In this document: one piece after another, positions 11,761 to 44,822 of the stretch
Position numbering within the stretch: position 1 is the stretch's first letter
Layout of the letters: every line of letters starts with the position of its first letter
DNA from: Nemertoderma westbladi
Taxonomy: Eukaryota > Animalia > Xenacoelomorpha
Length of the DNA stretch: 64,000 nt
Assembly: GCA_032718475.1 (NCBI GenBank)
Contig: JAUCBJ010000055.1
Location: 62,001 to 126,000 of the forward strand
Direction of reading: 5' to 3'
The notes under the pieces: generated by a model
What the model was told of the DNA's origin: nothing
Databases searched by the model: none
The model's input: the letters and a program-made list of their open reading frames with translations, nothing else
Translations under genes and position numbers: made by a program

Positions 11761-12604
11761 CCGCTCCATGAAAACAGGATATTATCGTGCATAAAATATA
11801 CGGTTTTCACCAATAATCAATCAAATTATAGAATACTTAGGGCGTACTTACATATTTACAAATTAAATTTCAAGCAATACTTCCTTTCTACATAATGATT
11901 CGATACAAAATAATTTCAAATTCAAACTTTACATATTTAAGGCTTTACTAAGTAAGTACAATATTTTGTTTATTTATGAATAGCTACATTATAATAATTT
12001 AATAATATAAACGTAAAAATTAAATAATTAAGTACAATATAAATCTAAATTAAATTCACCAATATAAATCTATTGCATCTCAATATTGCAAAATTCAAAT
12101 AATTACAAATACAAATAAATGAAAATCATAAGAAAGGCTCGCGAGTCTTCCATCTACTATTGCATCTCAACCATTGCATAAATTCAAATAATTACAAATA
12201 CTTTCGTGCCTAAATGTAGATTGCATAAGTTCGGAATAATTACAAATATGAGTCTTTCTAAGTACAAAACTTTCTAACTATAAAACTTTCTAAATACAAA
12301 TATAACACTTTACAAATGAAACTATAAGAAAGGCCCACGAGTCTTCCATCTACTCTTACTTTCTATTTCACTGTAAATACAAATACTGCTTATAAGATAT
12401 AAATTGCATAGTATTCGGAACAATATAAATTGCATAAGTTCGGAATAATCACAAATATAAAATATAAATCTTGCAAAATATAATTTCCTTCTAAATATAA
12501 ATCTTACTAAATATAAATTCCTTCTAAATATAAATCTTACTAAATATAAATCACAAATTCACAAGAAAGGCTCACGAGTCTTCCGTCCACCCTTGCCCTC
12601 CCTT

Positions 12605-13804
12605 TTATCGCTTAGTAGATCGAGCCCTGCCGCGTCCTCGAAAACTGCGCACAGGTGACTTTGCTCGCGATATGGGACTCGTGGGGCGAGTCACTGGTTT
12701 TGCTTGTACGTTGGGAGACGGTGCGACCGTTTCCTCACAAATTCGTCTATTTGGTATCCCAAAACCTCGACCGATTCCTCGTGACCGATCAGTTGTCACT
12801 ACAGTTGGTAAAACGTCTGGCAACGCGCGGAAAGCGGTCGACGCAGACCCAAGAGTAGCTTGCGCCCCCTTTTGATCAGCTGGTGTATGTCCCGATCCTC
12901 CTGTTGGTTCTCTAGGAAGCGATACCGTATCCCGAGTAATTCGAATGGTCGGCTCAACTCCCTTGCGTTCTTCTATATTAATAGACTTCTTTAATTGTTG
13001 GCTCACTTTCTGGACCCTTATGATCCTACCCTGTCCGTCCTCCCGAGGGTGACGTGCAGACGGCGCAACCGGAGTGGCTGGTATATTTGTCGCCTCTAGG
13101 ATCTCCTCTTCCTCAAATACGCTCGCTCGTATACGTTTGTGGTAAAACGCGGCTCGGTATGCCCATGCGACGGTTAACCAAGCTCCCTTATTCCGCTTTT
13201 CAGTTCGGAAACAATCAAATTCACCATACGTGATACGATTCACAACTTTCTGAAAATTCCACGTATTTTTATTGTCCGGGTGAATCTGTAACAGATACTC
13301 GCGCACCACTCTAAATCCACTATCGTGAGGCAAAATGTCGACTACCTCGATAAGTTCGTCATATTGGGGCATAGCGGAGATGTATCCTTCCGACATCATC
13401 GTTTGGGGATTTACCGCCCAAAATCCAAGATGCGCTCTCATCGGAAATCGTCTTCTTTGTGCCGATACGTGTTCGTCGGCTAAATCTTCCCACTCATCGA
13501 ATAGTTTTCTCACGAGTTTTACAGATTCGTGTTCATAAGGTATGTCTCTTAGTTGGCATTCAGATGCTCGATGCCCTTTTATATTGCAATAAGTACATTG
13601 AGCCATAAATCTCCAGCAATTATAAAAGGTATGAGACCCTTGATCTCCACACCATCCACAGATTAGTTGAGTCGTAGTAATGTGCTTTCCACTGCACTTG
13701 GTCAAATGATGTCCAGCGACGCCACATTTACCACACATTGTATTGGCAGGGTACCACACTCGTTCATATATAAGATCTCCAATTGGTCGAGCGCTTCCTC
13801 CCAC
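12605..13804 (-). CDS. Element D accessory ORF, C-terminal part: three CCHC zinc knuckles and a basic RG-rich tail
   Basis: CGKCGVAGHHLTKC, CGWCGDQGSHTFYNC, CTYCNIKGHRASEC. In frame with ORF 13859-16438 across a single TGA. Confidence 0.85.
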   Translation of the reverse strand: MGGSARPIGDLIYERVWYPANTMCGKCGVAGHHLTKCSGKHITTTQLICGWCGDQGSHTFYNCWRFMAQCTYCNIKGHRASECQLRDIPYEHESVKLVRKLFDEWEDLADEHVSAQRRRFPMRAHLGFWAVNPQTMMSEGYISAMPQYDELIEVVDILPHDSGFRVVREYLLQIHPDNKNTWNFQKVVNRITYGEFDCFRTEKRNKGAWLTVAWAYRAAFYHKRIRASVFEEEEILEATNIPATPVAPSARHPREDGQGRIIRVQKVSQQLKKSINIEERKGVEPTIRITRDTVSLPREPTGGSGHTPADQKGAQATLGSASTAFRALPDVLPTVVTTDRSRGIGRGFGIPNRRICEETVAPSPNVQAKPVTRPTSPISRAKSPVRSFRGRGRARSTKR

Positions 13805-13858
13805 ACTATAATCATAATCATCTGGATCTATGGGTTGGTAGGTTTCTGAAGGTTGTAT

Positions 13859-16438
13859 TCAAACTACAGCATCTGTTGCTTCAAGTTGTCGAATCTCCGT
13901 CTGAGATTTCTTCGGGAGGTTCCTTTCTATCTCAAGAAGTTCCTCTAAAGGATCGTCAGTGATCGTAGTCGTTACTTCGAAATCATCACCAAGGTGACCG
14001 ATAGGCGCGCGCGTCTGCCGTGATTCATCCATAACCTCCACGATACGTTCTCCTTCATAGGGTAACAATGTAAACATAGATGGTCTTTCGATAAGAGATC
14101 CCGCACAGCGAAGATACACGTCTCGAAATATACTAAATCCTGCTCGAGTAAAGGCATTACACTGAGCGTCGGAGTTGTAGAAGGGTTCAAGAAATCGTCT
14201 AAACACGTCGGTATGAATTCTCCCTTCCATGTAGAACATATGATCTTCTCCGAGACAAAGTGGATGTCTTTTAAGAGTCCGAGACACAATGTCGGCGATT
14301 AAGCAAACATTCACTGACGACTCTATTGCTAAATAATATTGTAGGACCGCTCTTGGAGGTGACGTAATAGCCCAATACACGCATCCTCTCCATTTGAGCT
14401 GTGATTCAAACTCACTCATATCTGGAGTATCACCTTCTCCATAAGTCTCAATATACTTGGCTCTCTTACTTTCCTTATAATCCCAATTGAATAACAGGTA
14501 GGAAATGTATCCAGTTCCGGTCTTCTGAGTATTATACTCACGAAAATATCCTTGTTCTATAGACCACAAGATAAGAGGTCGAGTGTCGACGTACGGTGTC
14601 GGTAGTCGGTCATCGCTGTCCGTCATGCCGGTGAAGTCGCTAATTAAGTCCTCTCTTACTCCTGATCCAATCTTTACAACAGTTTTATCTAAAATCATAT
14701 TTCTTACCATCTTCGGTAGCATTCTAGCATCGATATTACAAGCTTGGTCCATCTTCTTTACTATGTCAGTGATGAGATGGTGTCGCTTTGTATTTGCTGG
14801 AGGTATCGGCATTCGTTTGTCGCTCCTCTGTCTACTGAAAACGTGCAAGACTCCGTCCGCCGCTCTAATTTGTATAGTCTTAGAAGTCAAACTCTGTTGA
14901 TGACTGCCGCCCTCGTTATCGTAAAACATGTAACCGTTTTCCTGAAACGATCTAAACGTTCTATTCCATTCGTCCAACAATTCTTCCGAAGGTTGCCAAA
15001 TCTTCTCTATGTCCTTATCATCTTCGAAACGAATAACCTTACCTCGCCAATCCGCGGCAATATCTGTATCCGACTCGAAGGTTCCAGTTCCAATCCATAA
15101 ACGAATCGTTCTGGTTAAATATCCTTTCAAATTACTCGGAGCTATATCAGCACCAGCTCTATCCAGTTCCCTAAAGTCTTGAATATGAGGTGGAACGTTA
15201 TACACGACCTTTTGAGTAATATGTCTACGTAAATCATATATCTTACTCATATCGCTAAAAACAACTGCAGGAAGAAACTCCAAGTTTGAAATAATTTCTG
15301 GATGATCCACGATGGGTATTTCGTACGTCGTATCCTGTCGGACTGGTATACTAATAGGAAAATTGAGTGTCGTACTCAATGGTTTCGTAGTCGAAGTACT
15401 ATATGGTTGCATTTCTCTTTTCCTCTCCGGGGATGCAATCTGTAGTCTCTGAATAACATTTTGAGCAAAGTTTATGCTCTCGAAAACTTCCGGTGTCATC
15501 TCCTTAGCTGGAGTTTGATCGTGTGACGTCCAATGGTAAGGTAGGCTCGCGAGTCTTCCGCCCCATTCTTCCATCTCACCTTTCTCAAAAGCCTTGTAGG
15601 CTCTGTATAGGCTAAGAGCTTCTTTCTTTTCGCGGGTTGACTGATTCGCCTCGTCCAGCATAAGTTCAAATGCATCGGGTTCAACAACCTTAGGTGGGTA
15701 AACGACAGTTTCTCCCGCCTTTGGTCCAGTCATAGCAAACGAATGATATGGATTTGATAAAGGATACCCTCCTTCCTGGTAGCGTAGTCGTTGATGGTTC
15801 GAACACCTCGCCAATATCGGTTCGGGATTTTCCTTATTCAAACGCATTGGAATCGCATTTCGTTGTTCGCGCATACAAGAACCGCATTGATAATAAAGTT
15901 TATAAACTGAAAATGCTTCCTTTGTTTCTCTATCGTCCCCTCGAGTTCGTCTGTAAAGGTGCATTCCATCGAATTCATCTCGTACCGCAGGCATAGGTTC
16001 GTGCGCCTTCAGGTATTGCATGGTATGATACAAATGACTAATTTCAGTATCGGGGTCTTCGCTAATGTCTCCCGTATCACACAAAGCGTCGTACGGGTAA
16101 AGTTCATTGAAGGTTTTGCGCAAACTTTCGATTCTTTCATTTAATGCGTTTTGCCTCCTTTTTAATACATTTGAGTCATATTTAGTTCTCGCGAGTTTCG
16201 CAGTACTTTCTGATAATTCCTTTATACCAAATATAGTGTAGTCTTTGGCTCCAAATCTCTCGAATGGCGCTGCTGCTTCCTCTTGGATATCATATCCCCA
16301 TCTCGGCTCTCCATGTATCTCCTTCTCCATAATTAGAGGTGTAGTTACATAATCATTACTACTAGAGGGAATACAACAGAGTTTGTAGTTAGTTGTGAGG
16401 AGACGTGAGAGTTTTCGTCTGCCCTTTTGGCTCGACAA
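13859..16438 (-). CDS. Element D accessory ORF containing a DEDD(y)-type 3'-5' exonuclease domain (WRN/EXD/Mut-7-like); likely ATG at 16330
   Basis: ExoI-like YMFYDNEG (~14909-14935), TIQIR, ExoII-like LDKTVVKIGSGVREDL, YVDTRPL, TGTGYISYLLF, and a possible ExoIII QYYLAIE. The ORF is open for 859 aa. Confidence 0.72.
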   Translation of the reverse strand: MSSQKGRRKLSRLLTTNYKLCCIPSSSNDYVTTPLIMEKEIHGEPRWGYDIQEEAAAPFERFGAKDYTIFGIKELSESTAKLARTKYDSNVLKRRQNALNERIESLRKTFNELYPYDALCDTGDISEDPDTEISHLYHTMQYLKAHEPMPAVRDEFDGMHLYRRTRGDDRETKEAFSVYKLYYQCGSCMREQRNAIPMRLNKENPEPILARCSNHQRLRYQEGGYPLSNPYHSFAMTGPKAGETVVYPPKVVEPDAFELMLDEANQSTREKKEALSLYRAYKAFEKGEMEEWGGRLASLPYHWTSHDQTPAKEMTPEVFESINFAQNVIQRLQIASPERKREMQPYSTSTTKPLSTTLNFPISIPVRQDTTYEIPIVDHPEIISNLEFLPAVVFSDMSKIYDLRRHITQKVVYNVPPHIQDFRELDRAGADIAPSNLKGYLTRTIRLWIGTGTFESDTDIAADWRGKVIRFEDDKDIEKIWQPSEELLDEWNRTFRSFQENGYMFYDNEGGSHQQSLTSKTIQIRAADGVLHVFSRQRSDKRMPIPPANTKRHHLITDIVKKMDQACNIDARMLPKMVRNMILDKTVVKIGSGVREDLISDFTGMTDSDDRLPTPYVDTRPLILWSIEQGYFREYNTQKTGTGYISYLLFNWDYKESKRAKYIETYGEGDTPDMSEFESQLKWRGCVYWAITSPPRAVLQYYLAIESSVNVCLIADIVSRTLKRHPLCLGEDHMFYMEGRIHTDVFRRFLEPFYNSDAQCNAFTRAGFSIFRDVYLRCAGSLIERPSMFTLLPYEGERIVEVMDESRQTRAPIGHLGDDFEVTTTITDDPLEELLEIERNLPKKSQTEIRQLEATDAVV

Positions 16439-16990
16439 CGCTCTAACCTCCTACCCATAGCCTAAGATCTAGGGTTTCTTTAATGACACGCTGCTTCTTA
16501 TCTAAAATTTTTTGCCGAAATAAAAACGAATTTGGGCTAAACTGGCTGTGAGTCTAAAATACTCACCTTTTGATCCCAAACTATTATCAGAAAATAAGCA
16601 GTCAAGAGTTAGTAATAAATATAGGGAAGTCTATTTTGACGTAACTTATTGAAACAAGACCGTGTAAAATTTAATTAAAATTTTTAAGAAAGGCTCGCAA
16701 GTCTTCCTCTCTTGTTTCTCTAATTTTAAGTTCCACCCGACTGTACCCTGAAATCTATTCACTGTAGAAAATTTTAAAATTTTTCAAATCCAAATGGATT
16801 GTCTAAAATTTCGAAAATGTCTCAATATTGTGAGTTCCAAGTAGAATTCCATTTCTTATACCTACAAATCCCGCTCCTATGTGACACATAAGGGTACTAC
16901 CCTCAATGTTCACATATAAAGACAATGGAATTCTACCGCTGTCCTTACTACAGTGTACAGGTACGTGGAAATCTATTTGTAAACTCCTAA

Positions 16991-19900
16991 TTATTTACTA
17001 ATATTAGGTGGAGATTTGTAGTCTCCAGACTCGTTACGAGTCTCTTCAAGAAGTACGAGACGTTGAGTCGGTCTGTCTACTGTACGACCGTCAATTGTCC
17101 GTACCGTCACAGTTCTTGTCACTCCATCCATAGATGGATGTGTGGCTAAAATTACACCTGTTATCCAGAAGCGTCTTTTTAGATTCACTTCCGCTAACAG
17201 CACGTGATCTCCCGGCTTTAATGCGCGGGTGTTATTGTACCATGTTGTTCTGGCAGAAATAGAGGGCAAATAATGGTTTTGCCATATTTCCCAGAATTTG
17301 TTAGCTAGTATTTGTGTGATTTTCCACGCTTTTCTACCGTAGCTATCGCCTTCCATTGGAAAAGAAATAGGCGTCAAAGTAGTCGGTGCCTGCATAAGCA
17401 GGTGTGCCGGTGTCAAAGCAAACTGGGATTGTTTGTCATCGGGTACTAATACTATTGGTCTAGTATTTAGTATTGCCTCGATTTCAACAAACAGTGTTGT
17501 CAGTTGGTCGTCTGTCAAAATGTGGTTTACTGGAATGACCTTTGCCATTGCCGTTTTTATATATCTAATCAATCTCTCCCAGACTCCGCCTCTCCATGGA
17601 CTATCTGGAGGATTAAACTTCCAAACAATCTTGTAAGGACGTAGTTCGTTTGAGATTTGATCATGATCTAATTTCTTAAAGGCTCTAGCAATTTCATTTC
17701 GAGCACCAACAAAGTTTGTACCTTGGTCTGAGTACAAGCATTTCACTAGTCCGCGTCTAGCGATAAATCGCCGCAATGCTAGTATAAACGCGTTGGTGGA
17801 AAGATCCATCACACGTTCAATATGAACTGCCCTACTGGACATACATGTGAAAATCAGTCCCCAGCGTTTTACTAGTATACGTCCACGTTTCGTATGTATG
17901 GGACCAAAGCAATCAATTCCAGTCTCTGTAAAAGGTGGTCTGAATGCTTGAAGTCGTGCTTGTGGAAGTTCACTCATTTCTTGAGTGCCTATTCTAGAAT
18001 GTACCTTTTTACAAATAATACACGTACGTATCACTGAACTTAACGCTTTACTGGGTCTAATTAATACAAATCTTGTACGTAAGTAGGAAAGACAGTGGTG
18101 TCTTCCAGCGTGTTTCAGATGTAAATGTGTGTCCAGTATCATTGCACGTTGTAATTCGTGATGCTGCGGTATTATTATTGGGTATCTAAAGTTTGTGTTA
18201 AAGTCAATGTTTTGAAGCCGAGATTTATGACAAATTAAGCCATTATAAATTATCGGACTCCAACTCAATATTGGTGATGACTTGATTGGTTGACCTTGAT
18301 TTATAGATGTGAATTCGCGTGCGAAATATCGCAGTTGGTAATGGCGAATTAATTTAATTTCACACCTGTCAATCTCAGTCAATGTAAGTCGACGTGTAAA
18401 GTCTCGTTTGCCTTTAACGTATTGTACAAAACGTACAATCCACGCTAATTTTCGGCAAGCATTTGTCCAAGAATCTGTTAAGTTTACAATACGGTCGACG
18501 TAAGTATTTGTGACGTCATCAGGTAAGTCAATGGAGAATTTGGAAGGTTTTGATTTACTAGAAGGGCCCACGGGTCCGCCGGTAGGTATTCCCTTGTTGA
18601 CTGTTGATCCGTCCGGGTCTACAAGTAATTTGTCCTTCTTTGTTTTCTTACCTTGATTGTCAGTACTTTGTAAGTCGATCGTTAATGGTGGTTTGAACTC
18701 TATGGGGTCACTGGGTTTCGGTAAACTTATTTTTCTGCCGATATTAATCCCAGGTCTCACCATAGGTTGCAAGTTTGGTATGTCTCTTGAGCGCAAAGTA
18801 ACACCTGTATTTACATTTACGTAGGTACTACCCACATCTGTAATACATGAGGTTTCACTGTGCTTATGGTTACTCAAGTGTGTCAAATTTGGTAGTTTGT
18901 CAATACAAGGCCGCTCCAATAGGGAAACTGCTGCTTTACTATTTGTCAATAGGTTACTAGTACTAGTGTCTGGTAGAACATTTTGTGACATGTCTGGTAG
19001 AATGTTTCGCGGAACATCCGCCGAAATATCTAGTGACGTGTCTGGCTAAATGTCTGGTTGACCGTCTAGTAACGCGTCTGGTTGACCATCTGGCGATATG
19101 TCTGGTGTAGAAAGGGTCGCAAGTCTTCCGTTCTTGACCTTTGAAGTTATATCTTTCCATTTCGCCTTCGGTTTTTTCTTGAGTTTAGCCGCCGTCCTTT
19201 TCTTTGCTTTCCCTTTCTTTGGTTTTTTAATTTCGGCGTCTTTAGGGATAGCGTTAGACTTGTTGTCGTATAGTGGCGGCCAATGTTGTACTGATCTTTG
19301 CAAGAATTGTGGTCCGTGTTGCCAAAATTCTTTGTTTTCCGGTTTACAGAATTCCTCGGGCATCATTCCTCGCGACGCAATATCAGCTGGATTTTGTGGT
19401 CCGGGACAATGTCGCCAATCTTCCTTTATTGAACGGTCTAGAATTTCTGCGCGACGGTTAGCTACGAATGTCTTGAATTCAAGTGTGTCGTTGTTTATGT
19501 AAAATAAAACCAACGTCACGTCAGTCCAATAAAATATCTGTAAACTTGACTGTAGTTCCGTCTGTATAAGGTTCACGATTGTGGTTGACAGGGTTGCGGC
19601 TTGTAGCTCAGCGCGTGGTGTCGTCATATACTTAGTAGGCATGGTCTTAGCCTTAGAAGTAATGAGCGAAACATCAAACTCTTCTGAGTCTACTTGTCTG
19701 CGCAAGTACGCTGCCACACCAAAGCCGTTGTCACTGGTGTTGGAAAAACAATGTAATTCCAAGTTGTCAGGAAACGTCGTTTGTAATGGAAAGTACACTC
19801 TGGGTATGGAATAATCCTCTAGTGAAGATAATTGTGCCTCCCAGGTTTTCCATAAGTCCACTTGTTCTGATGAGATCGGCTCGTCCCATGTCAGTCCATC

Positions 19901-21967
19901 CTTCCAAATACTGCGCATATAAATTCTGGCTTGCAGTATTATTGGACTGATGAAACCTAATGGATCGAACAATCGACTCAATTTTGATAAGCAGGACCTC
20001 TTTGTCAGAGTGTTTTCTTGAGTGTCCAGTCTCACCTTCACTCGAAAGTTGTCCGTGTTTGGGTCCCAAAAGAGCCCCAACACCTTGGTCGTCGGTAGTG
20101 GTTCGAACTCTAGGTCAATGTCACCACCTCCACGCTCAGTCGTTCCGAATGAGTCTACCAATTCGGCACTGTTTGAGGCGAATTTGGTGAGGTTAAAACC
20201 TCCGCCCGCTAAGCAGTCCCGTAATTGATGTGCTACTGTTATAGCACGTTCTACTGTGTCACAACTCTGTAACCCGTCGTCTACGTAAAAGTCACGTTCT
20301 ACGATCTTGATTATCTCTGGGTCATATATATGTTTCTGATCCCTAGCGGCTTGCTTTAGGGCGTACATCGTACAGTTTGGGCTGTCCCTGGCACCGAAAA
20401 CGCGAACTTGCATTTGGTAAGTCGCCGGTGGTAGACTTAAGTCTCCTTCCGGGTACCAGAGGAACCTCAAACTGTCTCTGTCTCGCTCTAACGCTCGCAC
20501 TTGGTGAAACATAGCTTAGACGTCACAAGTAAAGGCTACTTGACGCTGACGGAAGCGCATAATCACCCCCATAAGATAATTATTCATGTTTGGTCCATCC
20601 ATTAACTCACTATTGAGGGACATTCCCTCAAATAGAGCCGCGCAGTCATTGACTACATGTACTTTGTCTGGTTTGTCGGGGTGTCTCACATAGTGATGTG
20701 GCAAGTAGTATGTCTGGTCAGTCACAATCTCTGGGTTAGTCATTCTGATAGCGTATCCCTTCGTTAAATACATCTCCATCTGAGTATTATACTGCAGATG
20801 GGCTTTCTCGTCCTTTAATAGACGTTGTCGTATTGAGTGTAAACGTCTTAAGGCTAGCGGATAGTTATTTATAAGTTTAGGACGTTGGTTACGCCATAGC
20901 ATCCCTACCTCATAATGTCCGTCTTTCGTCTGGCGGATAGTATCTTCCATGATCTTCAAAGATTGTTTCTCTTGTTCCGACATACATGGTTCGTAGCTAC
21001 CAGGTTCGGCTGTATCTTGTTCTAACCACCTGATAGTCTTCTCCGTTAGTTCTTTGTCCAGTGCAGCTTGTTCCACTTGATGATATCTTAACGCGTCGTC
21101 ATCGATATCGACGGGCATTGTTGAGGTTATTAGTGTAGATAGACTCGCAAGCCTTCCGGCGTTATCATCTGTTGTCGATGGAATCTCTGGCTGACTCGTC
21201 TTCTCCCCAAGTTCTAAACTCACCTGGTGGATTAGCTGCTCCTTGTGACTTATCATACTCGCTACACACGTCGTGTCATGTTTTGTCGAATGTAGTGTAG
21301 TATAGTCTACGTCGTGTGAAAAGGAATGAGTCGAAGTTGTAGTTAATAAACTACATGTACTTTGTATATCGTCTTCCTCGTCACTTATATCCAGTGTGCG
21401 CACAGGCGCTTGAGTATACCACCCTATCGGCGTTCTTCAGGCGTATGCGTTTCCCGCTACGACTGCCGATGGTCTGGTTTCCCACACTTGATGTAGGTTG
21501 AATTGATCTGTCCCGATCAGCATTGCTACCGACCTATAGTTGACAGGACATTCAGGTACACCAAGGTGTCTGAAGTACTTACGGTCCTCCAAGGATTGTT
21601 CTGGGACAGGACCTAGTAGGTTACTAAAGTCCTTTGTGGCCGCAAAGGTTAAATCTTTAAAGGGTAACAAAGACCTCTCCTTTTTGCTATGTTGCGATTT
21701 CGGAAGATGAGTGTCTAAGTTCAACTTAACTCGTGTTACTGGTATTGCACGTTGTCCATGCATACTACTTACGGTGTAACTGACGTTCTTACCTTGTCTA
21801 AGATCCGTGACGACATCAGCTACCTTCTCATCCACGTAACTATGAGATGAGGCTGAATCCAGGATAGCGTAGATCCTTTTGCTCCCTTTGGTGCCAGTAA
21901 TCTTGACAGGAATTATACTAAACCCCTTTAGTTGATCAGGCGTCAGAAGCGCAATCGATGGTTGTTC
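16991..21967 (-). pseudogene. pol: Element D pol (protease, RT, RNase H, integrase) with nonsense mutations at 21437 and 20516 and a frame break near 19000
   Basis: Protease AILDSAS; RT YYLPHH, MFHQV and FYVDD; Pao RNase H LHCFSNTS, TTPRAEL and QNPAD; integrase HAG..CIIC, GIDCFGP, SDQGTNF and GGVWERL. Confidence 0.95.
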
Positions 21968-21972
21968 GTCTC

Positions 21973-22516
21973 TGTTAGCTTATTCAATCCCGCTAACACC
22001 CCATAAAGTTATAAGCCGATAAGCAATATTGGGAGCCACGAGATTGGGTAATTAGCCAACTCGTGCCATCCCAATAAGAATGGGAAGGAAACACACAACG
22101 AGGGTCAGGGGCCAAACCCCTAACCCAGAGAGAATAGGTGGAGTGAACGGGAACACTCCAAAGGGCGCCAACAAGGGTATCAACCAATCAGAGGGGGAAA
22201 GGCATCGATTAGGTAGAGTAACAAGGCCAACCGTGCAATATAGCCACTTGGCAGTAATCATATCAATTCAGTTATCTCAGTGCAATACCGGTGCTAGATT
22301 AGGTTACATAGTTTAGCTAGGGAAGGACCGGGACTTTAGTTACCGTATCCCGCCTTCCGTATACGACAATATTATCTCATATCTATATCTATATCTATAT
22401 CTGCATACCCGAATATTATATACGACAAACAGCACAAACTCATTCACTCTTTATACACGGCGGGGACGCGTGAACTAACAACGGATAAACCGGGATCCCT
22501 CTTGGATCCCGTCACA
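21973..22516 (+). repeat. 5' LTR of element C
   Basis: Direct repeat of 30799-31343. Confidence 0.96.
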
Positions 22517-22588
22517 GTAACTAAACCAGAGCTGCCGCCCTAGCTAACTAGACTCAGCAACCACCAGCCACCAACCTGCAGAAGAGAG

Positions 22589-25500
22589 ATGAGTCGGTCA
22601 GGTGACACGACACCGACGCGGACCCCGGACGAAGAGCTAACGATCCGCGAGGCCGCGACCAGGCGGTATAGGCCCACGACACCGGAGCCATCGATAAGGG
22701 GCGACCCGGAAGTTCAAGATGAGGGGGACCGTCTGGAGTCAGAAGCTGAGTCGAGAGGAGGGGGAATCGAGTTGGAGGATAGAGAGAACGAGCTCGAGGG
22801 TGAAGGAGACGGGTCGACACGGGACAGGGGTCGACGCACCAGTGTCGCCGGCCAGCCACAGGCCGAGGGCGACGAGCGGCCCACCGAAACGGCGACGGTG
22901 GGGCCGACGGTGCGGCGCCGGACGCGGAGAAACGGAGGAGAAATCGGTACCGATGTCGCCGGCCAGCCACAGGCCGAGGGCGACGGACGGCCCACCGGAA
23001 CGGCGACGGTGGGGCCGCCGGTACGACGTCGAACCAGGAGAGACGGACGAGAGGTCGGCGACGAGGACGTCGGGGTTTCTGAGCGACTTCGACGGGCCTA
23101 CAACGCGACCCGGAGACTACTAGAGGAGGCCAGAAAGGGGAAAGCGATAGACGAGAAGGGTTGCCGAGGAACTGTATGACTCATGGCGGCATGGGGGTAT
23201 ACAACCTAGTGTAGTGTACATAGGGCCATATTTAATCGATGCCCGGGGTATAAAATTAGTGGGTTGGAACAGACCTGAGGAGGGCGAATCCGAGGCGGAC
23301 CCCGCGGTTTTGGTCTCGTCGGTCGGAGGGAGTTCCGGGAGGAGGGGGAAAGTTAGTAGATCGGGAAGGCGGAGGGAATCCTTCACAACCGATAAGTCTG
23401 CTACATCCTCCGCGAAAGAAAGACGGGTGAGAGAGATAGTCGCTAGGTACCGTCTCAATCTAGCAGTGCAAGGTAATAGATAAGTAGGTAGACGGCTAGA
23501 GGAAGGGAGAGTGCTGCTAGAGAGGGAAATGGTGTCGATTGGAGAGATAAGAGAGAGGGCCGAAAGGGCCGTGAGGAGCCTTAGGGAGTATGATGAAATA
23601 GAGTTGAAGGAACAAGAGGAGCGTGTGGCGAGAGAGAAAAGCGAACGCGAGAAGCGTGAAGCGAGGGAGGAAAGTGAACGCAGAGAGCGTGAAGCGAGGG
23701 AGGAGAGTGAGCGTAGAGAGCGTGAGGCGAGGCAAAGGGAGGGGATTAGGAGAGAGATGGAATTGGCCGAGCAGAGCGAATGGGAGGCTATGGATAAAAT
23801 AGCAAAAGTGGAGCGTGAGCGGAAAGAATTGGAGAAACAGCGAGACAAACTCGTAGAGTATGAAGCCGTACACACGCGTGAGGTGGAACTGGCGCAGATG
23901 GGGGCGTCTGAGAGCGAGGCTGGCTCGAGTATTTTTGAGGAGCCGGGGGCCGTGGATACATTTATTAATGCCCCACTTGCGGGGACCGCACGACAGACCC
24001 AAGACTGGTGTGACCGTGCTGGCCGGGGGGGGGGGTAATAATGATAATGGTACAGTAGACGTGGTTAATATTAATAGTACCGTATGGGATAATTCTAATC
24101 AATCCTTTATTGCAGGAAATACTTTGCCTAGTGATAGTAATTTAAATTTAAATCAGAACAACCCTAATATTAACGTAGAAAATAATTCTAATATTAATGT
24201 AGCTAGACAAAATAATCAAAATAATCAAAATAATAACCCAAATTCGAACCTACAAAATAATTTAAGTAACGCAATTACACAAAATAATCCAAATAATTTA
24301 AATAATGATCCGAGCCCGAATTTACAAAATAATTCAGATAGTGTAGTCGCGCAAAGTAATTCAAATGATTTTATTTCGAACGAACAAATTAATTCCGTTT
24401 CCAATATGAGTGCTATTAACGTAAACACGTCGGGCGTGTATAGCCAGACAGACGGGGGCCTGGTAGGCCACGTAGTTGGTAGGCAGGGAGTGGCTGGGTT
24501 AGGTAGACCCAGTGAGGGCCTGGTAGGTCACGTAGTTGGTAGGCAGGGAGTGGCTGGGTTGAATAGACCCAGCGAGGGCCTGGTAGGCCACACAGTTGGT
24601 AGGCAGGGAGTAGCTGGGTTAGGTAGACCCAGCGAGGGCCTGGTAGGCCACGTAGTTGGTAGGCAGGGAGTGGCTGGGTTGAATAGACCCAGCGAGGGCC
24701 TGGTAGGCCACATAGTTGGTTTGGCAGGGAGTAGAGGGCCTGGTAGGCCACGCAATAGCAGAGGGAGAGGCGGGGGTGAATAGACCCGACCGTGGTAGGG
24801 TTGATGTGTCGACTGGAGAGGGATATAGTAGAGGGGTGAGGAGTAGCGAAGTTAGATGTGGCGAGTGGGGGGGGGGGGGGGGGCTACGAGAACCCCACAA
24901 CAGCGAGTTAGCGGCGAAAGGGGGGGGCAGAGAGTGTCCCACAGCCGTCAGCGGATAATGCGCGGACCGAAATAGGTAAACCGCAACAACCGGCGACGGA
25001 AAGTAATAGGGGGATTGCGAGTATCCCCAGCGGCGTGCGACCGAGCAGAGAGAGACAGGTTGACATCGTAAGAGGGCGGACGAAGCGTCGAGCCCGATCA
25101 GAAGAGGGAAGAAGAACAGTGGGGTTTAACCGGGAGGTCGACGAGAGATCTCACGAGCGGGAATACTCCACTGAAAGGAGAAGAAGAGAAGACAGTAGTA
25201 GAGGTATCGCCGCGAACGATAGAAGAGCGAGGACGGATAGCGAGCCGTCGGTAGTTGAGATGAGAACGGAGAGTCAGTGGGGTCGGACTCCGGGAGATTG
25301 CCGTCGCCCCGGAGAGATGCGACCCGGCGAGGCGCACTACGCGCCGATGGAGGGGTACGCGATGTACCGGTACAAAGACGAGAACAGTAGAGGGGGGGGT
25401 CGAAGAGAAACTTTCCGACGGAATACACCTATCGATCGAGAATACGGTAGCCGCGGGGAGGATTATTCGAGAAGAATAAACTTCGATCCCGAGCGACACA

Positions 25501-25808
25501 TGCAGACTGTAGGACATACTGTAGGCCTTACTGCACATACCATAGGCCATACTGAGAGAGGCAATGTAGGCGATAGGATGGCGTGGACAACGGGATTAAA
25601 CCCGGAAGTCGCGGAATACATACCGGCGAGTAGGCCAGAAGCTGATAGGCCTATACCGGTACCAGCACTGCAGTATGACTACAGCATGCAGGGACATAAC
25701 ATATACCCAGGGGAGGGGGGAATTATTGCGGATAGGTGTATGGGCCCCAACATATTAACATCAACCCCAGTACCAAACATACCGGTGGGGGGGGGGGGGA
25801 CAGGGTGA
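22589..25808 (+). pseudogene. gag: Element C gag N-terminal region, broken by stops and poly-G frameshifts
   Basis: Homologous to the gag starts of A and B, with a coiled-coil, an Asn-rich tract and 60-bp repeats at 24455-24750. Confidence 0.78.
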
Positions 25809-25866
25809 CATTCCCCCATCACAATATCAACAATATACCCCGATAGGAGCAAGAACAACGAGACCC

Positions 25867-28503: not shown

Positions 28504-28704
28504 AAGGTGCGGGCAGAAGTGTTACCTGTCTGCTAGAAGGAGCACCTTAACTTGGAGTTAGAGTAGAGTTTAGTCGTCCAAGATTTGGACTGAGGGGGGT
28601 GGGATTGAGGGCGAGACGCCCTTCCCACACAAATAAAATAAAAATAAAATAAAAATAATAAGTACACAGTAGGTACGCAGTTAGTAGGCAGAAGTTAGTT
28701 AAGA

Positions 28705-29240: not shown

Positions 29241-29548
29241 AGTAAGAGGTAGAAGGGTATATAAGATATAGATATTAGTTAGCAGTTAGTAGCGTTAGTA
29301 GCGAGAGGAGGGCATATGAGTACAGCTGGGTAAATTGTGTGGCCACACGACGCACACTGCTGTACTGCATAGGCCCACAGAGTAGGCCAGAATGTGGATT
29401 AGGGAATAGAATAATCAATAGGAAGCAGTAAGGTAGTAGGATTGAAATTAAATCAAAAATAAAATTAGAATAAGAATAGGGCTAAGAAGGGGAACAAATT
29501 ATGGTAACAGTAGTAAGAATAGGCAATAACTCAGAAATTCAGAAAGAG

Positions 29549-30798: not shown

Positions 30799-31343
30799 TG
30801 TTAGCTTATTCAATCCCGCTAACACCACATAAAGTTATAAGCCGATAAGCAATATTGGGAGCCACGAGATTGGGTAATTAGCCAACTCGTGCCATCCCAA
30901 TAAGAATGGGAAGGAAACACACAACGAGGGTCAGGGGCCAAACCCCTAACCCAGAGAGAATAGGTGGAGTGAACGAGAACACTCCAAAGGGCGCCAACAA
31001 GGGTATCAACCAATCAGAGGGGGGAAAGGCATCGATTAGGTAGAGTAACAAGGCCAACCGTGCAATATAGCCACTTGGCAGTAATCATATCAATTCAGTT
31101 ATCTCAGTGCAATACCGGTGCTAGATTAGGTTACATAGTTTAGCTAGGGAAGGACCAGGACTTTAGTTACCGTATCCCGCCTTCCGTATACGACAATATT
31201 ATCTCATATCTATATCTATATCTATATCTGCATACCCGAATATTATATACGACAAACAGCACAAACTCATTCACTCTTTATACACGGCGGGGATGCGTGA
31301 ACTAACAACGGATAAACCGGGATCCCTCTTGGATCCCGTCACA
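30799..31343 (+). repeat. 3' LTR of element C
   Basis: Follows the hairpin and PPT; followed by TSD GTCTC. Confidence 0.96.
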
Positions 31344-31348
31344 GTCTC

Positions 31349-33390
31349 CAGTATCAAAGTAAACGTCGTCGTCTTCCGACTCTTCATCCGACGATCCTGA
31401 TTGTTCTGAGAAGCAATCTCTAATGTGCGTCACGAAGGTCGGTGTTATTTTCGACTCTCGACCCTTATATGCTGTGTTGCATCTTGCTGCCGCTTCCGGG
31501 TGTTCCCTGGTGAAGCGTTTGGTCGGCGTATGACTGTTTGTGTGGAGCAAACCGTCATGGTTGCGTCCACAGGAAGGACAGGTGTCTGTATTTGGGCAGT
31601 CTTTACGGATATGTCCATGTAGCGTACACCGCCAACAAGAGTCCAATGGCCGTATTTGCAGTCGTCGTTCCTCTGAATTCAATTCGCGGAATAGTCGACA
31701 TCCTCTTAGTTTATGGCTAGTATGTCGTTTACCTAGCCGTTCGCAATATTGGCAACCGCTAAAGTCTGTGCTCAGTTGCTGTCGGGTCTGTTTGGTTCCA
31801 ATCGGTGCGGATACCTTATTACCGTCCGAAAATTGTTGGGTGTCGGTCGACGTGGCGTAAGTGGCCGTCTTGGTGGATGTTGTTTGGGGTTTTTGTCGGT
31901 TCGAGGATGGTAAGGTTGTTCCTTCCGCCACAATATGTTGGTCCGTGTAGTTCGAACGCGTCTCGACTACTGCCTCTCTAGATATCAGTAAGTAGACGTC
32001 TTCCAACTTCAAGAATCCGCCTCTCTCTTCTCGCTGATATTCTATCTTTCGCCACTCCCGACGAAGTCGATGGTGTAATCTTCCTATTATTTTCAATAGG
32101 ACTGTCGGAGTGTTCGCGTAGTCAAGTTGTCCAATCGAGCGTAGTGTAGTAATGGCGTTCTTAATCTCGTCAGCTAATTTCAGTAAGTCAACGGGTTTTG
32201 TTATAGCCCCCCCTTACAGAGTTCTTCTATCACTGACTTAGCCATGCTTACGGTGCCTCCGTAAATCGAAGTTAAGCGATCGTACGCTAGTTCGAAGGCG
32301 TCTGGTACACCGACAAAGGTCTCCGCTAGACGTTTCGGTTCTCCCGTCAGCGTTTGTAGCAGGTAGTTGAATTTCTCCCTCGATGTAAAGGCGCACGCTG
32401 CTATTTGGGTTTCGATGTAGTCCACAAAGGTGTGCCAATGTTTCGAGTTACCGGAAAACTTAGGTAGTTGTTGCACCAGTAATCCTTGTCTGGCTGCGAA
32501 TTTCGCTATCTCCTCGGCCACGTTCAAAGTTTCGCGTCCTTCGTTGGCAATCGAGTTGATGTTTTCTCGTCTTGGCACTTTTCCTTGATACGAGGTGTTT
32601 CTCGAGGGTTGTTTTCTTTGCTGCTTCGGGTGTCTAGAGTGTTCGAACTCGGTACCTCGCGAACTATCAGTTTGAGTTTCCTCTAAACGTTCCTCTATCT
32701 GGGCCAACTTGTCTACAACTGGGCGCATTATTTCGGCGAGTTGTTGCATACTAATTGCGTCCGTTGGTTGTAACGCCTTCTGTGTTGGTGTATTTTGTGG
32801 AGGATTATCGATAAAGGAGTTATCTGAACGCTCACCTTTATATTCGTCGGCCGCTCCTGTTCTAAATACCTCACGTTTCGGGTAATCCGATTCACTCGAA
32901 GTACTACTGTCACCTGGATACGGTGGTCGACGTGCTCGCGTCCGTTGTGCTGTCTGAATCCTAACATTCCGTTTTGGAACATCGTCTACTGGGTTCCGTC
33001 GTTCGGTAGGCTCGCAAGTCTTCCTCGAAGTCGTAGATTGCGATGTAAACTGATTAAACGGTCGCGTATCCACTGGTCTCCGTTGTTCGGTAGGCTCGCA
33101 AGTCTTCCTCGAAGTCGTAGATTGCGATGTAAACTGATTAAACGGTTGCGTATCCACTGGTCTCCGTTGTTCGGTAGGCTCGCAGGTCTTCCTCGAAGTC
33201 GTAGATTGCGATGTAAACTGAACCGGTGGTTGAATGACAGCATTTGAATCTAAAGGCCTTGTAGGCCTAAACGTCATTGGGTACGTGTAATGCATAACGG
33301 GTTTTGGCGTCGAAGGTGGACTCACCTGTTTAGTCGTTAGTAGTGCAGGTCCTGTCAACAAACTACTACGATCTGTAATCGGTGGGTTAC
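31349..33390 (-). pseudogene. gag: Element D gag, 3' portion (core and BEL zinc knuckles)
   Basis: LPKFSGNSKHWHTF..EKFNYL; CQYC..H..C, CWRCTLHGHIRKDC, CPSCGRNHDGLLH; three 84-bp repeats at ~32985-33230. Confidence 0.9.
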
Positions 33391-33716
33391 TTACCTTGAC
33401 TTTCAGAATGGGTGATGACGTTGCTCTTGGCGGTGTAAACTTGTCCCCGCTGTTTGTGCACCTCCCTGAAATGGTCTTGTAGCGCTCGCGCTCCGTGACC
33501 TCTCTCTAATTGCTCGTAGTATCCCCTCGTCTTCTCTTCCGGATGCCTCTTGGTGAAATCCACCAGTATCTCCTTTCCTCCTAACTCCGCCTTTCTCTTC
33601 CTGATCAGTTTTCCCACCATTCCGAACTCTCTCACTCGCTCACCTGTAAGGTGGTGCCTTGCCAAGGCGCAGTACAGATGAGTGATAAGTTTAAGATGGT
33701 CTGTGCAGTTCGACAA
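33391..33716 (-). pseudogene. N-terminus of the element B accessory ORF, cut by the inversion breakpoint
   Basis: Lies after B pol and the tandem array, matches C at 29549, and joins 44823 via GTAA. Confidence 0.7.
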
Positions 33717-34099: not shown

Positions 34100-34580
34100 A
34101 CTATCCGGTACTACGTACCCTCTTACTAACTTCTAACTAACTTCTACCAACCGGTACTACGTACCCTCTTACTAACCTCTAACTCTATCTAACTAACTAA
34201 CAGTACTACGTACCATCTAACTCTTACTCTCTCTAACTAACTAATGGTACTACGTACCCTCTAAATCTTACTCTCTCTAACTAACTAACTAATGGTACTA
34301 CGTACCCTCTAACTCTTACTCTCTCTAACTAACTAACGGTACTACGTACCCTCTAACTCTTACTCTCTCTAACTAACTAACGGTACGACGTACCCTCTAA
34401 ATCTTACTTTCTCTAACTAACTAACGGTACTACGTACCCTCTAAGTCTTACTCTCTCTAACTAACTAACGGTACTACGTACCCTCTAACTACTAACTCTC
34501 TACCTAACGGTACTACGTACCTTCTAACTACTAACTCTCTACCTAACCGTACTACGTACCTTCTAACTACTAACTAACTA
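34100..34580 (-). repeat. Tandem GGTACGTAGTACC-core array of element B
   Basis: Reverse complement of the C array type. Confidence 0.9.
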
Positions 34581-40434: not shown

Positions 40435-40566
40435 CACTTATAGAATTATATTCTCTAAACGCCGTGGATTTTCAAAATTTTATTTTATTCGAATTAACTT
40501 TGTTAAAAGATTACATTAAGTCCTCATTTGTATTACTATATCTATTTGTACGATGATTATTCAAGT

Positions 40567-40640
40567 GGTTCAGTAGCTCAGTCGGTAGAGCGTTGGATAT
40601 TATATGTAGTGTGTATTGAGTTCGAATCCTAGTAGGTGCG
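40567..40640 (+). other. tRNA-derived sequence in the D 5' LTR
   Basis: A box TAGCTCAGTCGG and B box GAGTTCGAATCC. Confidence 0.65.
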
Positions 40641-40716
40641 AATTATTTTTTGTGCAGAGTTCAACTCATTTAAATTGACCGCTACAGATTAATTGCATTT
40701 GCTCGAAGTAAGATTA

Positions 40717-40905
40717 CTACTACTAGGATCGGCGTGCTGCATTGCAGCTGCATTTTTAAGAATGCTGTGCCGGCTTGTCAACAAAATTGCACCGCCACAA
40801 CTCCCTATCACCCATGACATTTGCTAGATCATCCGCATCTTTAAGGCCAGTGTCCTTTAAGATGCGTCTCAAGAAAGTCATGGGCTGTCCACCATGCTTA
40901 TATGC
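40717..40905 (-). mobile_element. 5'-truncated RTE1-family insertion
   Basis: Almost identical to 2608-2792, with a (TAG)n tail and an 11-bp TSD AAGTAAGATTA (40706-40716 and 40906-40916). Absent from the other D LTR. Confidence 0.95.
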
Positions 40906-43290
40906 AAGTAAGATTAACCAATGAGATTGTAGTTATTAGATTGTAACCAATGTCGTGCAAGTTATATATTCGCTGGACCAATAGTTATCTTTAAAAACCT
41001 ATTAGAACTCATAGAACAATCGAGAATTTTCTCGATTGATTGCAGCACAAATTTGCTATAAAAGGGTGCGATTTGTTCATTAGTTATCTCTCAGTTATAT
41101 CTATCTTTATATCTCTCAGTATATCTTCTGTAATAAAGTCAGAATTATCGCTAATCTGCCCTTTTTCTATCTGTTTTACTATGCTTCACCACGGTGAACT
41201 CAACTGAGGGACAGGATGGCTGGCTAGACATTGGGCCACAGCAATGAACGAGAACATCTAAGGAATGTAGACAGGAGACAACCCGCAATATCACTCTTAG
41301 TTATTCGCCCATCGCCTGAAAGGTTAGACAGCGTTCGATGCCTTGCTACCTAAGTATAAGACCAAAGATCGAAGGTAGAGGTAGTGACACGCTGTGCGCC
41401 AAAAATTACTTCTAGGAATTGTACTGTTTTAATTCAGGAAAAAACCGCAGTAGACCTTCATACTCCGGTACAAGGCATACACATTGGTAGGGTGCAGCAA
41501 ACTGTACGCCTAACTCTTGCTAAGTGCAGGTGCGTCTGTGACTATTTGTAGTACAACGGTGTCCATTGCATTAGAACTTGTAGGCCAGGAGGGTTACTGT
41601 GTTTTACCTGAATTAGGATTGTACCGTTCAGGCGGTAGGGCAGTTTACGACTAGGCGCAAATAAATTGAGGCTAATTAGGGATACTAACATCTACCGTGT
41701 CCCCGCCGACATCCTGATAGGAAGTTACCAAGCCCACCTAGGTAACCAAAATTCTAGATAGGACGCCAGGCTAGCTATTAGTAACAGTACGCCTACTGTA
41801 GTAAACTAACATTTCTTCTTAGTATTAGGGACCTGGTAAATTAAATTGCCGAATTCTGGGCGTAGTATTAACCTTATGCCTGAATTTGAGTCCTGGAAAT
41901 ACATGAAAGGGGAAGGAGCCTTATCATTCGTGAGTATTGGACCTACAAGTTACAAAATTAGAATATTTGTAAAATGCACACAGTACCCAGTAATTATATA
42001 TATGAAGGAGCAAAACTGATCTTGATGGTTCAGAATTAACACACGCGAGTTAGAAATTATTACACCTCAAAATATATAAAATTAACTTTTGTCCGTACTG
42101 CGCTTTGCCCGCTAGTTAGGCATCTCCAGATCTCTGCACCTAGCTAGCGTCCTTTTCGCCCAACCATATAAATCACACCGCGGCAAAGTATACGAGCCCC
42201 TTAGTCCGTCAGTGAGTCAGCCTGATTTTAGGATTCGCTGCGCGGGATTTTGTTTTATCGAAGTTTGTCTGTTCGTAGACTGTTTTCTGCCTCACCGGTT
42301 ATAAGAGACCGATACTGCAATATATATTCGCTTACTTGGAGTTTACTGTTTTGGTGAGAAGGTCGGATTTATGATTTGATTCACAAACTCTACAGTAGGA
42401 TATTGCAGGTATTGTTACTGTCTCTTCGAATAATAGGAGTATGTGTATTATTTAACATATTTCCTAGAATAGTAGGAGTATGTTTTACTGAACTACGGTT
42501 CGGTAGGACTAAAGTTATTTAAAAAAAAAAAAATTTTGTATTTTGAAGTAAAAGTTTATATTTGATTAGCTAAGTGCTAATATTTTGAAATAAAATTTGA
42601 TTTGAACCGCGTGTAAAATATTTTGGAATTGAATACCGGTGTTTAAAAAGGGTTTAAATACCATATTGTACCGGTACAAAATTCTCGTAAAAGTAAAACC
42701 TAACTCTTTTGTTTTTCAGGATTCAGAGCTCATTTCTAGACTGTAACGAGAGCAAGACCGTGTTTAGCAAGTTTGGGAGATAGATAACCCAACAACTTTG
42801 GTTGGGAAAATCGCACTTCGTCCGCAACGCTGGAAACGGAACGGTTCACGTCCGGTTTGTATCTGGGAATCTGTTTTTCTGGAGAATCATTGGAGTGGGT
42901 GAGTTCGAAAAGTTGCATAAGTAAGTTAGGCATTACCGTATTAGTTAAAATTATTGTGGGTTCCACTGTCTCAAGTATTTATGCATTCCGTATGATTTCT
43001 TTGTTTATTGCTGAATTAGTCCGTATTATTGTATTTAATTTATATTTTGATAACGTATATCGTTATCCGCTTTATTTGTTATAAAATTGGCCGTTAGGCT
43101 AATTTTATTATATACTTATTCCGTGACATTTATTTGCTGTAAAATTGGCCGTTTAGGCTAATTTTATCCATCTGCTATAAAATCGGCCGGTAGGCTAATT
43201 TTATATGACTGTAACTAGTACCGTTTAGATATAAATACGGTAAATTTGATACTTTGACACTCACATTTTACTTGACTTACAACTACCGAA

Positions 43291-44822
43291 ATGAGTGACA
43301 AGCAAGACTATACGAAGAATACACCTACCGACTATGACTCATGTGACGCGGATAAGTCAGCAGCGGAAGAACTACAGGGGAAGACTCGCGAGCCTACCGA
43401 ACCTACACCGTGTGCGTCACCAGTACATCCAACGGGAGTACCGGATGCCGTAGTACGAGGCGACGGCAGGACCGAGGACTTTCTAACTGTTCCGCAACCT
43501 AGATACAGGGAAACGGACATGGTAAGTTCAGTAGGAAGCCAGGAGAGCGTGGTTAGAAGCGTCGGAGGATACATGGCGCATATTACCAGGAGTATTGGAG
43601 AAGGCCAATGCATATTAGACGAGTTGACCACTCCGATGTCTCGGTTTGAGTTCTACACCCTCCAGGTTAGAGTACAAAGTAGAGTACATAAGTCCGTAGA
43701 TAACCTTATCAGTCTACAAGATCTAGCTAGACAGAGACAGGACGTGGATACTCAACTTAGAATCCTCGAGAAACTAATGATCGCTAGAGCGAAACTGATT
43801 CAGTTTAAGTCGACGATTAGGCAGATACAACAGGAACAAGCGGACCAGTTGTTAGGTGAGTCAGTTTCGGACGAATTATTGCAACCCGAGGAAGAACAGG
43901 AACTGTATAGGCTGGATGGACAATTGAAACACCTGACGGATCATTTACGCATGTACGGCGAAGACGTCGGCGATTTGGAAACCGTGCCGGAATATACGAG
44001 GGAAACTTCACCCGTACAAATCGAATCGGCACCGGGAATACTGGACCAATCGTTAGTGAGTATTCGCAGCGAAATTGATGAGGTAAGTATAGTGACGTCA
44101 GAAATTTCCAGACAGCAACAACAGCACTATAGACAACAACGGGAAATTGAGGAACAAACTCAACTGTTGACGGTACAAGCGGCGGTAGAAGAAGAAAAAC
44201 TACGCATTGCAAATGTCGCGAGAATCTCTCATCTGCAAGAACAAGCCGAGTTGGAAGCAGCTGAGATGGAAAGGTTGGAGCTAGAAATAGCACAGCGAAC
44301 AGCTGAGTTAGCGCAACAAGCGGCAACAGCTGAGTTGGAACGACAAGCGGCAGCGGCTGCGCAACAAGCAGCAGCAGCGGAGTTAGAGCGACGAGCAGCG
44401 GAGTTGGAAGAACATAAGCGAGTTTCCGAAGCAAGAGCCGAGATGAAAAAACGGCAAATAAAGGCTCAATCAGCTATACGACAAGCGGAGTTCGAGGCGC
44501 AACAACAACAGACGGAACAACGCGAGAAAGAAGTTAAACTTTATTTCGAACTCGAGAAGAAGGCGAGAGAATTAGCCAACGCGAAGGAAGATCTAGATCT
44601 ACAAGCCCGCGATCGATCGATGAGATCTCGAGACGGACACGATTTAGACTGGTTAGAGGTAAGACACCGCCAAATTCAGGAACGAATGAATGAAGGAAGT
44701 GTAGGGGCACCTGGGCGAGAAAGACAATTAGTTAAAGACTTATGTCAAAGATTCCCTCAAGTAACTCCTATGTTTGCACCGATTACGACTAAGGAAACTG
44801 TTTCGATTGCTGGTAGTAGTAA
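43291..44822 (+). CDS. gag: Element D gag, N-terminal coiled-coil portion
   Basis: ATG ORF downstream of the D 5' LTR, Q/E/A coiled-coil, joining the 33361 ORF in frame across the breakpoint. Confidence 0.85.

Follow-up and report, generated by a model that had tools for sequence, protein, structure and literature searches.

A dispersed 20-bp palindromic word in a BEL/Pao-type retrotransposon of Nemertoderma westbladi as a possible site for an element-encoded protein

Sequence-specific anti-silencing by an element's own protein has been shown for plant DNA transposons, through the VANC proteins of VANDAL, a Mutator-like DNA transposon, and through TnpA of Spm. In Arabidopsis, VANDAL elements combine an accessory gene with many copies of a family-specific motif, partly arranged in tandem repeats. 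These motifs are 9-bp, non-palindromic and non-coding, related families carry different repeated words, and both binding and demethylation have been demonstrated (PMC5735166, PMC10398659). In Spm, TnpA binds a CpG-containing, family-specific motif and causes hypomethylation, with the motifs clustered at the transposon termini and dense clusters being needed (10.64898/2026.08.24.746577). Here, we describe a palindromic word that is dispersed through element D, a BEL/Pao-type long terminal repeat (LTR) retrotransposon of ~18.6 kb from Nemertoderma westbladi (Xenacoelomorpha). D lies in a stretch of 64,000 nucleotides (the window; assembly GCA_032718475.1, contig JAUCBJ010000055.1, positions 62,001 to 126,000 of the forward strand), together with the elements A, B and C. 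The word is family-specific and apparently under selection. Tentatively, and with somewhat less than even confidence, we read it as a selected site on double-stranded DNA. Its ligand would be a dimeric protein, probably the product of the accessory gene of D, acting in a VANC-like manner.

A preliminary description of the window had reported a 17-nt quasi-palindrome with at least 11 copies in D. All 11 are present at the positions it gave, with 0-2 mismatches, where 0.01 are expected (100 shuffles, none of which reached 11). In full, the word is a 20-bp, perfect degenerate palindrome, GRWAGRCTYGCRAGYCTWYC, the pooled pattern of which is its own reverse complement, and a 12th copy missing from the first list lies at 14000-14019. 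The internal 14.7 kb of D contain 7, 10, 11 and 12 matches to the 20-bp word at 0, 1, 2 and 3 mismatches, respectively, and all 12 matches with at most 3 mismatches fall inside this region. With up to 4 mismatches allowed, there is no match in the 45,414 non-D bases of the window, elements A-C included, in line with the preliminary description, and none in both LTRs of D. In 300 Markov controls, the mean number of matches at 2 mismatches was 0.007, a significance that is post hoc because the consensus was derived from the copies themselves. A de novo scan of all 14-mers ranked the palindrome first in D, with 8 dispersed clusters. Words in other parts of the window did not exceed 4 clusters in C and 5 in the rest, and A and B had none. 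No match was found in the viral contigs that were scanned. Twenty-three single exact matches in metagenome contigs were set aside as unrelated, as these contigs have no tblastn match to D proteins and 22/23 lack a second copy within 3 mismatches.

The 12 copies reduce to 8 independent loci, spaced 1.1-2.5 kb apart, because an 84-bp tandem repeat accounts for three copies and a local duplication of the 3′ untranslated region (UTR) for another three, so that half of the copies (6/12) sit in local repeats; the 11 copies first listed account for seven loci and the weaker one at 14000 for the eighth. On the minus strand, the 3′ UTR copies are found at 12132-12151 (0 mismatches), 12328-12347 (2 mismatches; in the local duplication) and 12565-12584 (1 mismatch; 21 nt past the accessory stop). 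These are followed on the same strand by two copies in the accessory gene, at 14000-14019 (3 mismatches; read as RQTRAPI) and 15540-15559 (read as GRLASLP), and by one in the non-coding spacer between pol and the accessory gene (16688-16707). Two more lie in pol, one in the RNase H-integrase linker (19110-19129; 1 mismatch; read as GRLATLS) and one, with swapped inner arms, in the linker between protease and reverse transcriptase (RT; 21138-21157). The tandem repeat of gag (33005-33192, minus strand) holds copies at 33005, 33089 and 33173, read as KTCEPT, and the N-terminal part of gag holds one on the plus strand (43379-43398; read as KTREPT). Among the 11 copies first listed, 10 are thus on the minus strand, and the one at 43379 is nevertheless element-sense, since an inversion has flipped the 5′ part of D with respect to the remainder. 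Two candidate related sites, of uncertain significance, are a pair of the inner half-sites 3 bp apart where integrase ends (17027-17043) and a shorter half-site pair with a 5-bp spacer (12676-12692).

Four of the 12 copies are non-coding and eight are coding, the latter all in linker-like sequence. At the level of loci, six are coding and two are not, and the coding ones are read in two frames: as GRLA at three (GRLASL or GRLATL at 15540, 19110 and 21138) and as KT(C/R)EP (KT(C/R)EPT at 33005 and 43379) or QTRAP at three. The two frames indicate that the constraint is on the nucleic acid, as the preliminary description had concluded from the GRLA and KT(C/R)EP readings, and together with the non-coding copies they led us to reject a constraint at the protein level. 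Flanks are unrelated among the 8 loci while the 20 bp are kept, and in the 3′ UTR units, which average 66-68% identity, the word keeps 18-20 of its 20 positions.

Other copies of D are represented by contigs only, many of them diverged, from the public runs X1-X4; X1 and X2 derive from a single sample, and the window may itself stem from X1. Around 19110, a stretch of 22 letters that matches the 16688 copy, perhaps with mismatches, is followed in contigs of X1 and X3 by 14 other letters and then by D sequence from 19145 onward. The gap that separates the 19110 site from 19145 is 15 nt long, just enough for one letter plus those 14, and 9 of the 15 flank letters differ. We read these contigs as probably belonging to a relative that keeps the word beside a changed flank, though they may instead carry a true deletion that was filled with other sequence. 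The swapped positions at 21138 show no listed variant in the four runs, and the majority differs from the window at one degenerate position only, with one CpG change at 1.2%. A ~85% relative (X2, X3) aligns through this site and is unrelated from 2 nt beyond it. Furthermore, a 9-nt deletion at 21138 (26% of the depth in X3, the sole contig of X4, at trace level in X2) cuts off the first letters of the word. Aligned by hand, the resulting junction is a 0-mismatch consensus that fits best in reverse orientation; re-forming the consensus by chance would be expected in about 1 in 16 cases.

What, then, might recognise the word? Both of its halves fit one half-site, GRWAGRCTYG, and the halves are exchanged at the 21138 pol site. 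Two-fold symmetric recognition of double-stranded DNA is established behaviour of dimeric binders, and these two features of the word therefore fit a two-fold symmetric protein on double-stranded DNA. We propose that a dimeric protein, probably encoded by the accessory gene of D, would bind the 20-bp two-fold symmetric word on DNA at the 8 loci of the internal region. The N-terminal ~400 residues of the accessory protein, for which no counterpart was found in the accessory gene of B, are a candidate for the binding part. Once bound, the protein would label D copies from end to end of this region and might protect them against CpG methylation, in the way that VANC protects VANDAL. The shared orientation of the sites might stem from RT template jumps that copied them, or from an asymmetric optimum. 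In the most extended form of this proposal, D would be an animal LTR retrotransposon equipped with a sequence-specific anti-silencing of its own. A new accessory protein would bind 20-bp palindromes placed every 1-2.5 kb in gag, pol, the accessory gene and the UTRs and so prevent CpG methylation of active copies, with sister families using other palindromes. We consider this extended form speculative and unlikely.

The CpG content of the window bears on this proposal. Between repeat pairs, transitions are found at 32/423 CpG sites, 21/1795 other C/G sites and 2/398 GpC controls, meaning that transposon CpGs in this host mutate ~7-fold faster than other C/G sites. This excess most likely reflects methylation of transposon CpGs by the host. 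At codon junctions, the CpG odds ratio is 1.39 (1.18-1.65) in D, 0.68 (0.55-0.85) in B and C together and 0.43 (0.34-0.54) in other elements; for RT/RNase H plus integrase only, it is 1.15 (0.81-1.63) in D and 0.62 (0.44-0.87) in B. The lack of depletion in D is what a lineage replicating from unmethylated copies would show. Taken together, CpG decay in transposons of the host and a lack of CpG depletion in D alone lend indirect support to the VANDAL parallel.

As in VANDAL, the word of D is family-specific and differs in relatives (12/12 copies in D, none in A-C), and B and C carry other palindrome arrays. It is not concentrated in non-coding tandem repeats, and, unlike the VANC motifs, it is a long palindrome with mostly coding copies. 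D is an LTR retrotransposon with an accessory protein that has no family match, and is therefore not a member of VANDAL/VANC. Although its mode of action may resemble that of both systems, D does not belong with Spm either, from which it differs in element class, in having no related protein and in its long palindrome with mostly coding sites; the sites of D are single and internal, and absent from the LTRs. The repeated-motif (RM) boxes of Sireviruses resemble the word in being palindromic, CpG-containing and repeated in an LTR retrotransposon, also upstream of an extra gene (PMC2829016). However, they occur in plant Copia elements, have a CGG-CCG core and cluster mainly in the LTRs (PMC2829016), whereas D has another core, BEL/Pao domains, no copies in its LTRs, and the word in gag, pol and the accessory gene. 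Foamy viruses, like D, have an accessory gene 3′ of pol, tas, and its product targets cis elements in the provirus that encodes it, namely in the LTR and at an internal promoter (PMC12789967); D has no site in its LTR.

In the largely open-access literature that we searched, there was no case of an animal LTR retrotransposon with sequence-specific anti-silencing by its own protein, and no retrotransposon with a long palindrome written throughout its coding regions. If the word is indeed a DNA site, the anti-silencing strategy would have been invented independently, by means of a new DNA-binding protein that recognises a 20-bp address. If it acts on RNA, it would provide a clear example of RNA signals that are dispersed and near-invariant in an LTR retrotransposon; to our knowledge, little is known of packaging or export signals in these elements. 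Either way, the motif would offer a direct handle on the function of the orphan third gene in BEL/Pao-type elements.

Several observations weigh against a DNA site that protects D from methylation. No copy lies in the LTR promoter, and B, despite a related accessory gene, has no comparable long dispersed word. The recognisable domains of the accessory protein are limited to CCHC knuckles and an Arg/Gly-rich (RG-rich) tail; since such knuckles usually bind single-stranded nucleic acid, they are better suited to a site on RNA than to a palindrome on DNA. The CpG odds ratio shows no gradient with distance from the sites (1.39 up to 500 bp away vs 1.21 beyond, with bins that are not monotonic), ApC is enriched in D as well, and composition or a horizontal origin could explain the CpG excess equally well. 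The D copy of the window itself decays at CpG: among the best-supported differences listed, 11/18 of those with A in the window and G in the family, or T in the window and C in the family, are in CpG context (counted by hand). In other D copies, both pol sites are kept beside diverged flanks, but a plain variant count at the one fully examined site (21138) gives 2/20 motif versus 28/171 flank positions and no significant depletion. Some contigs also appear to skip the middle 3′ UTR copy, with joints ending at 12358. Finally, that the word is always element-sense, as first described, is true of the outer letters at 8/8 loci and of the inner arms at 7/8 only, and the left half reads GG(A/C)AG at 8/8. 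Pair 2:19, in which a variable pyrimidine at position 19 faces G, holds at 8/8 loci in the sense strand versus 3/8 in the antisense strand, and the loop is YGCG at 8/8. An RNA site would give such patterns, and YGCG resembles the YNMG tetraloops.

These last points raise the possibility that the word acts on the sense RNA, either as a dispersed signal that Gag or the accessory protein reads with its knuckles (for packaging, export or localisation) or as a self-complementary tract through which copies pair, in one genomic RNA or across the two. We regard this as a serious but somewhat doubtful alternative, with the DNA reading only modestly ahead of it. The consistent sense orientation of the outer letters, the C/U variation opposite G and the constant loop speak for it, as do the spacing of 1.1-2.5 kb along the RNA and the three CCHC knuckles with the RG-rich tail encoded by the accessory gene. 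Like dispersed packaging signals of RNA viruses (PMC6281560), the word is a shared motif that runs along the genomic RNA on the packaged strand, coding regions included, and like retroviral dimer-initiation palindromes (PMC12789967) it is self-complementary and GC-centred. Packaging signals are, however, stem-loops with short degenerate motifs, and dimer palindromes are single ones in the leader, whereas the word of D is long, near-invariant and folds poorly in sense. Hairpins of the sense strand are predicted at 0 to -3.3 kcal/mol, which leaves the RNA hairpin that had been suggested at first a weak option. The probability of pair 5:16 is at most 0.35 at 12/12 copies with 15- or 40-nt flanks and exceeds 0.5 at 1/12 with 100-nt flanks, pair 3:18 is unpaired at 5/8 loci, and the antisense strand folds better at 10/12 copies. 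The arm swap at 21141 had been thought to keep the pairing; in fact, pair 6:15 is an unpaired A.C in sense RNA at 7/8 loci, and a G.U at 21141 only. A stem-loop forming in context, as in dispersed packaging signals, is therefore not predicted, though a bound protein could stabilise it. Rfam reports no family at E<=1 at the sites over 9800-22000, and one chance-level match away from them. Duplexes between copies are predicted at -13 to -24 kcal/mol, and at -22 to -31 kcal/mol with the arm-swapped pol copy, but such strength is an automatic consequence of palindromy. The RNA view is also compatible with the pol-site deletion variant, which yields a continuous 6-bp stem as well (by hand).

A protein of the host may bind the DNA in place of one encoded by D, either an activator or methylation-protecting factor that D recruits, or a factor by which the host recognises D. 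The two-fold symmetry, the CpG core and the lack of CpG depletion would fit such a factor as well, and the accessory protein has no known DNA-binding domain. Yet neither elements A-C, which are related to D and share its host, nor the LTRs of D contain the word, twenty constrained positions are long for one host factor, and a repressor site would be selected against rather than multiplied. Compared by eye, the word overlaps only partially with BANP, p53, HSF, Smad and nuclear-receptor sites. We consider a host factor quite unlikely. The word might also be a neutral by-product, one 20-mer that was spread by template switching and tandem duplication and tolerated in linkers. Six of the 12 copies do derive from two local duplications, the coding sites are all linker-like, and the variant count is not depleted, but this very unlikely explanation has to contend with the unrelated flanks at 8 loci, the diverged 3′ UTR units around a word that persists, its retention beside changed flanks at both pol sites and the deletion that re-forms the consensus. 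A site-specific recombination site was also considered and is unlikely, as no recombinase domain was found (Pfam) and recombination would delete genes.

The accessory gene of D, on the minus strand, consists of two open stretches in the same frame. The first (13859-16330) encodes 823 amino acids from Met to the stop, with a CxxC...CxxH motif near residues 148-179; the second (12605-13858; 417 amino acids) encodes three CCHC knuckles and the RG-rich tail. A single TGA (13859-13861) parts them, which may represent decay or programmed read-through and is not among the 40 best-supported of 1051 differences to other D copies. The first frame has no homolog among 1.84 billion representative proteins, and none was found for the accessory frames in a length-limited word search, metagenome loci or PDB sequences. 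Against Pfam, there is no match at E<=0.01, with a weak zf-CCHC at E 0.024 only, and no known DNA-binding domain was recognised. The Atlas leads for these frames were all below 0.9 (EXD1-like/3′-5′ exonuclease, 0.85; DUF8363 and CCHC proteins, 0.89), and the weak 3′-5′ exonuclease-like identity was not confirmed by PDB or Pfam search. Single-sequence structure models were unusable, with a mean predicted local distance difference test (pLDDT) of 33 and 42.

Element B has its own, broken accessory gene (33461-33619 on the minus and 44853-46939 on the plus strand), which is related to that of D in two stretches: the knuckle region (z 8.1) and D residues 416-474 (z 4.7). Each of these was reached by 0/300 shuffles, and 2/22 piece comparisons passed. 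No counterpart of the first ~400 residues of D was found in the gene of B, and a BLASTP comparison of the first D frame with the B frame at 44933-45880 was not significant.

The domains of D are, in order, DUF1759, Peptidase_A17, Integrase_H2C2 and DUF5641 (Pfam). Its pol (16991-21972, minus strand; stops at 19046, 20516 and 21437) follows the BEL/Pao-type order of protease, RT, RNase H and integrase, although the protease motif was recognised by eye only and the RT stretch has no Pfam RVT match but a 33% match to element B. The closest integrases are at most 41% identical, the named ones being from echinoderms, cnidarians, molluscs, amphioxus, a copepod and fish, which points to a marine animal as the likely host. 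Belpaoviridae measure 4.2-10 kb, with LTRs of 0.2-1.2 kb and an env-like third gene (PMC8742986). D shares with them the Gag and Pol domains and their order as well as a third gene behind pol, but departs from this profile (PMC8742986) in its length of ~18.6 kb, its LTRs of 1.85-2.0 kb, its TA..TA termini, the lack of an evident transfer RNA (tRNA) primer site and a third gene without family match. Bdelloid rotifer LTR elements with an ORF3 (PMC5408684) also have a third gene behind pol, but for the gene of D the exonuclease likeness is not confirmed. In the literature consulted, third genes are described as env-like or, in rotifers, as exonuclease/esterase, and not as the type seen in D (PMC3118150, PMC13524379, PMC12440569, PMC5408684).

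D is nested inside element B and is itself interrupted by element C (21973-31345, plus strand), another BEL/Pao-type family that lacks the word and is bordered by a 5-bp target duplication (GTCTC). The 3′ LTR (9912-11760, minus strand; TA..TA termini) and the 5′ LTR (40439-42432, plus strand), both without the word, are 96-99.6% alike and bordered by a shared 5-bp target duplication (ACACT). A 186-bp insertion in the 5′ LTR is also present at 2607-2792. The 3′ part of gag (31346-33460, minus strand) holds DUF1759 and the knuckles, with a frame change near 32201, and the 5′ UTR with the 5′ part of gag (42433-44850, plus strand) lies on an inverted segment. This ~11-kb inversion, from ~33460 to ~44850, splits both D and B, has a short word common to both ends, and may be a real rearrangement or an assembly error.

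Behind the 5′ LTR, from 42433 onward, no TGG-type tRNA primer-binding site was seen. A 10-mer occurs twice there (42434-42443 and 42473-42482) and is complementary to a stretch inside the 3′ LTR (10931-10940), which might permit self-priming; in the 5′ LTR, a deletion runs through the stretch that matches 10931-10940. By eye, a tRNA-like A-/B-box sequence was seen near the LTR start (~11555-11635 on the minus and ~40565-40645 on the plus strand); ARAGORN finds no tRNA, and ARAGORN and Rfam report nothing at these stretches. Three near-identical hairpins just upstream of the gag start (43080-43205; predicted at -10 to -14 kcal/mol) are candidates for a classical packaging signal. Splice-acceptor- and splice-donor-like signals, found by eye and with a crude scan at 42700-42930 (5′ UTR) and 16450-16600 (before the accessory gene), suggest possible expression from spliced RNA.

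Other palindromes are repeated in the neighbouring elements. The 13-bp palindrome GGCCT-N3-AGGCC occurs in 60-bp repeats of A, B and C (5095-5167, 9323-9455, 24457-24749) and once in the gag of D (33255-33267); it has 14 matches within 2 mismatches versus 1.2 expected, mostly in tandem repeats, and in A the 3-bp centres of the two copies are in opposite orientations. The palindrome GGTAC-GTA-GTACC forms tandem arrays at 28705-29223 and 34107-34560, within non-coding parts of C and B (the array of B lies between pol and the accessory gene), and these arrays are more VANC-like in layout than the word of D. TAGGCC is found 16 times in the internal region of B and 16 times in that of C, mostly in sense, 4 times in D and twice outside; its excess in B and C, which are ~85% alike, is not significant after clustering. 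The remaining neighbours of D, among 342-1865, 49393-53024, 56134-57755, 58905-61385 and 62560-64000, comprise an endonuclease-bearing fragment of a long interspersed nuclear element (LINE), two LINE RT frames, a THAP/P-element-like transposase of 826 amino acids and two integrase-bearing LTR fragments.

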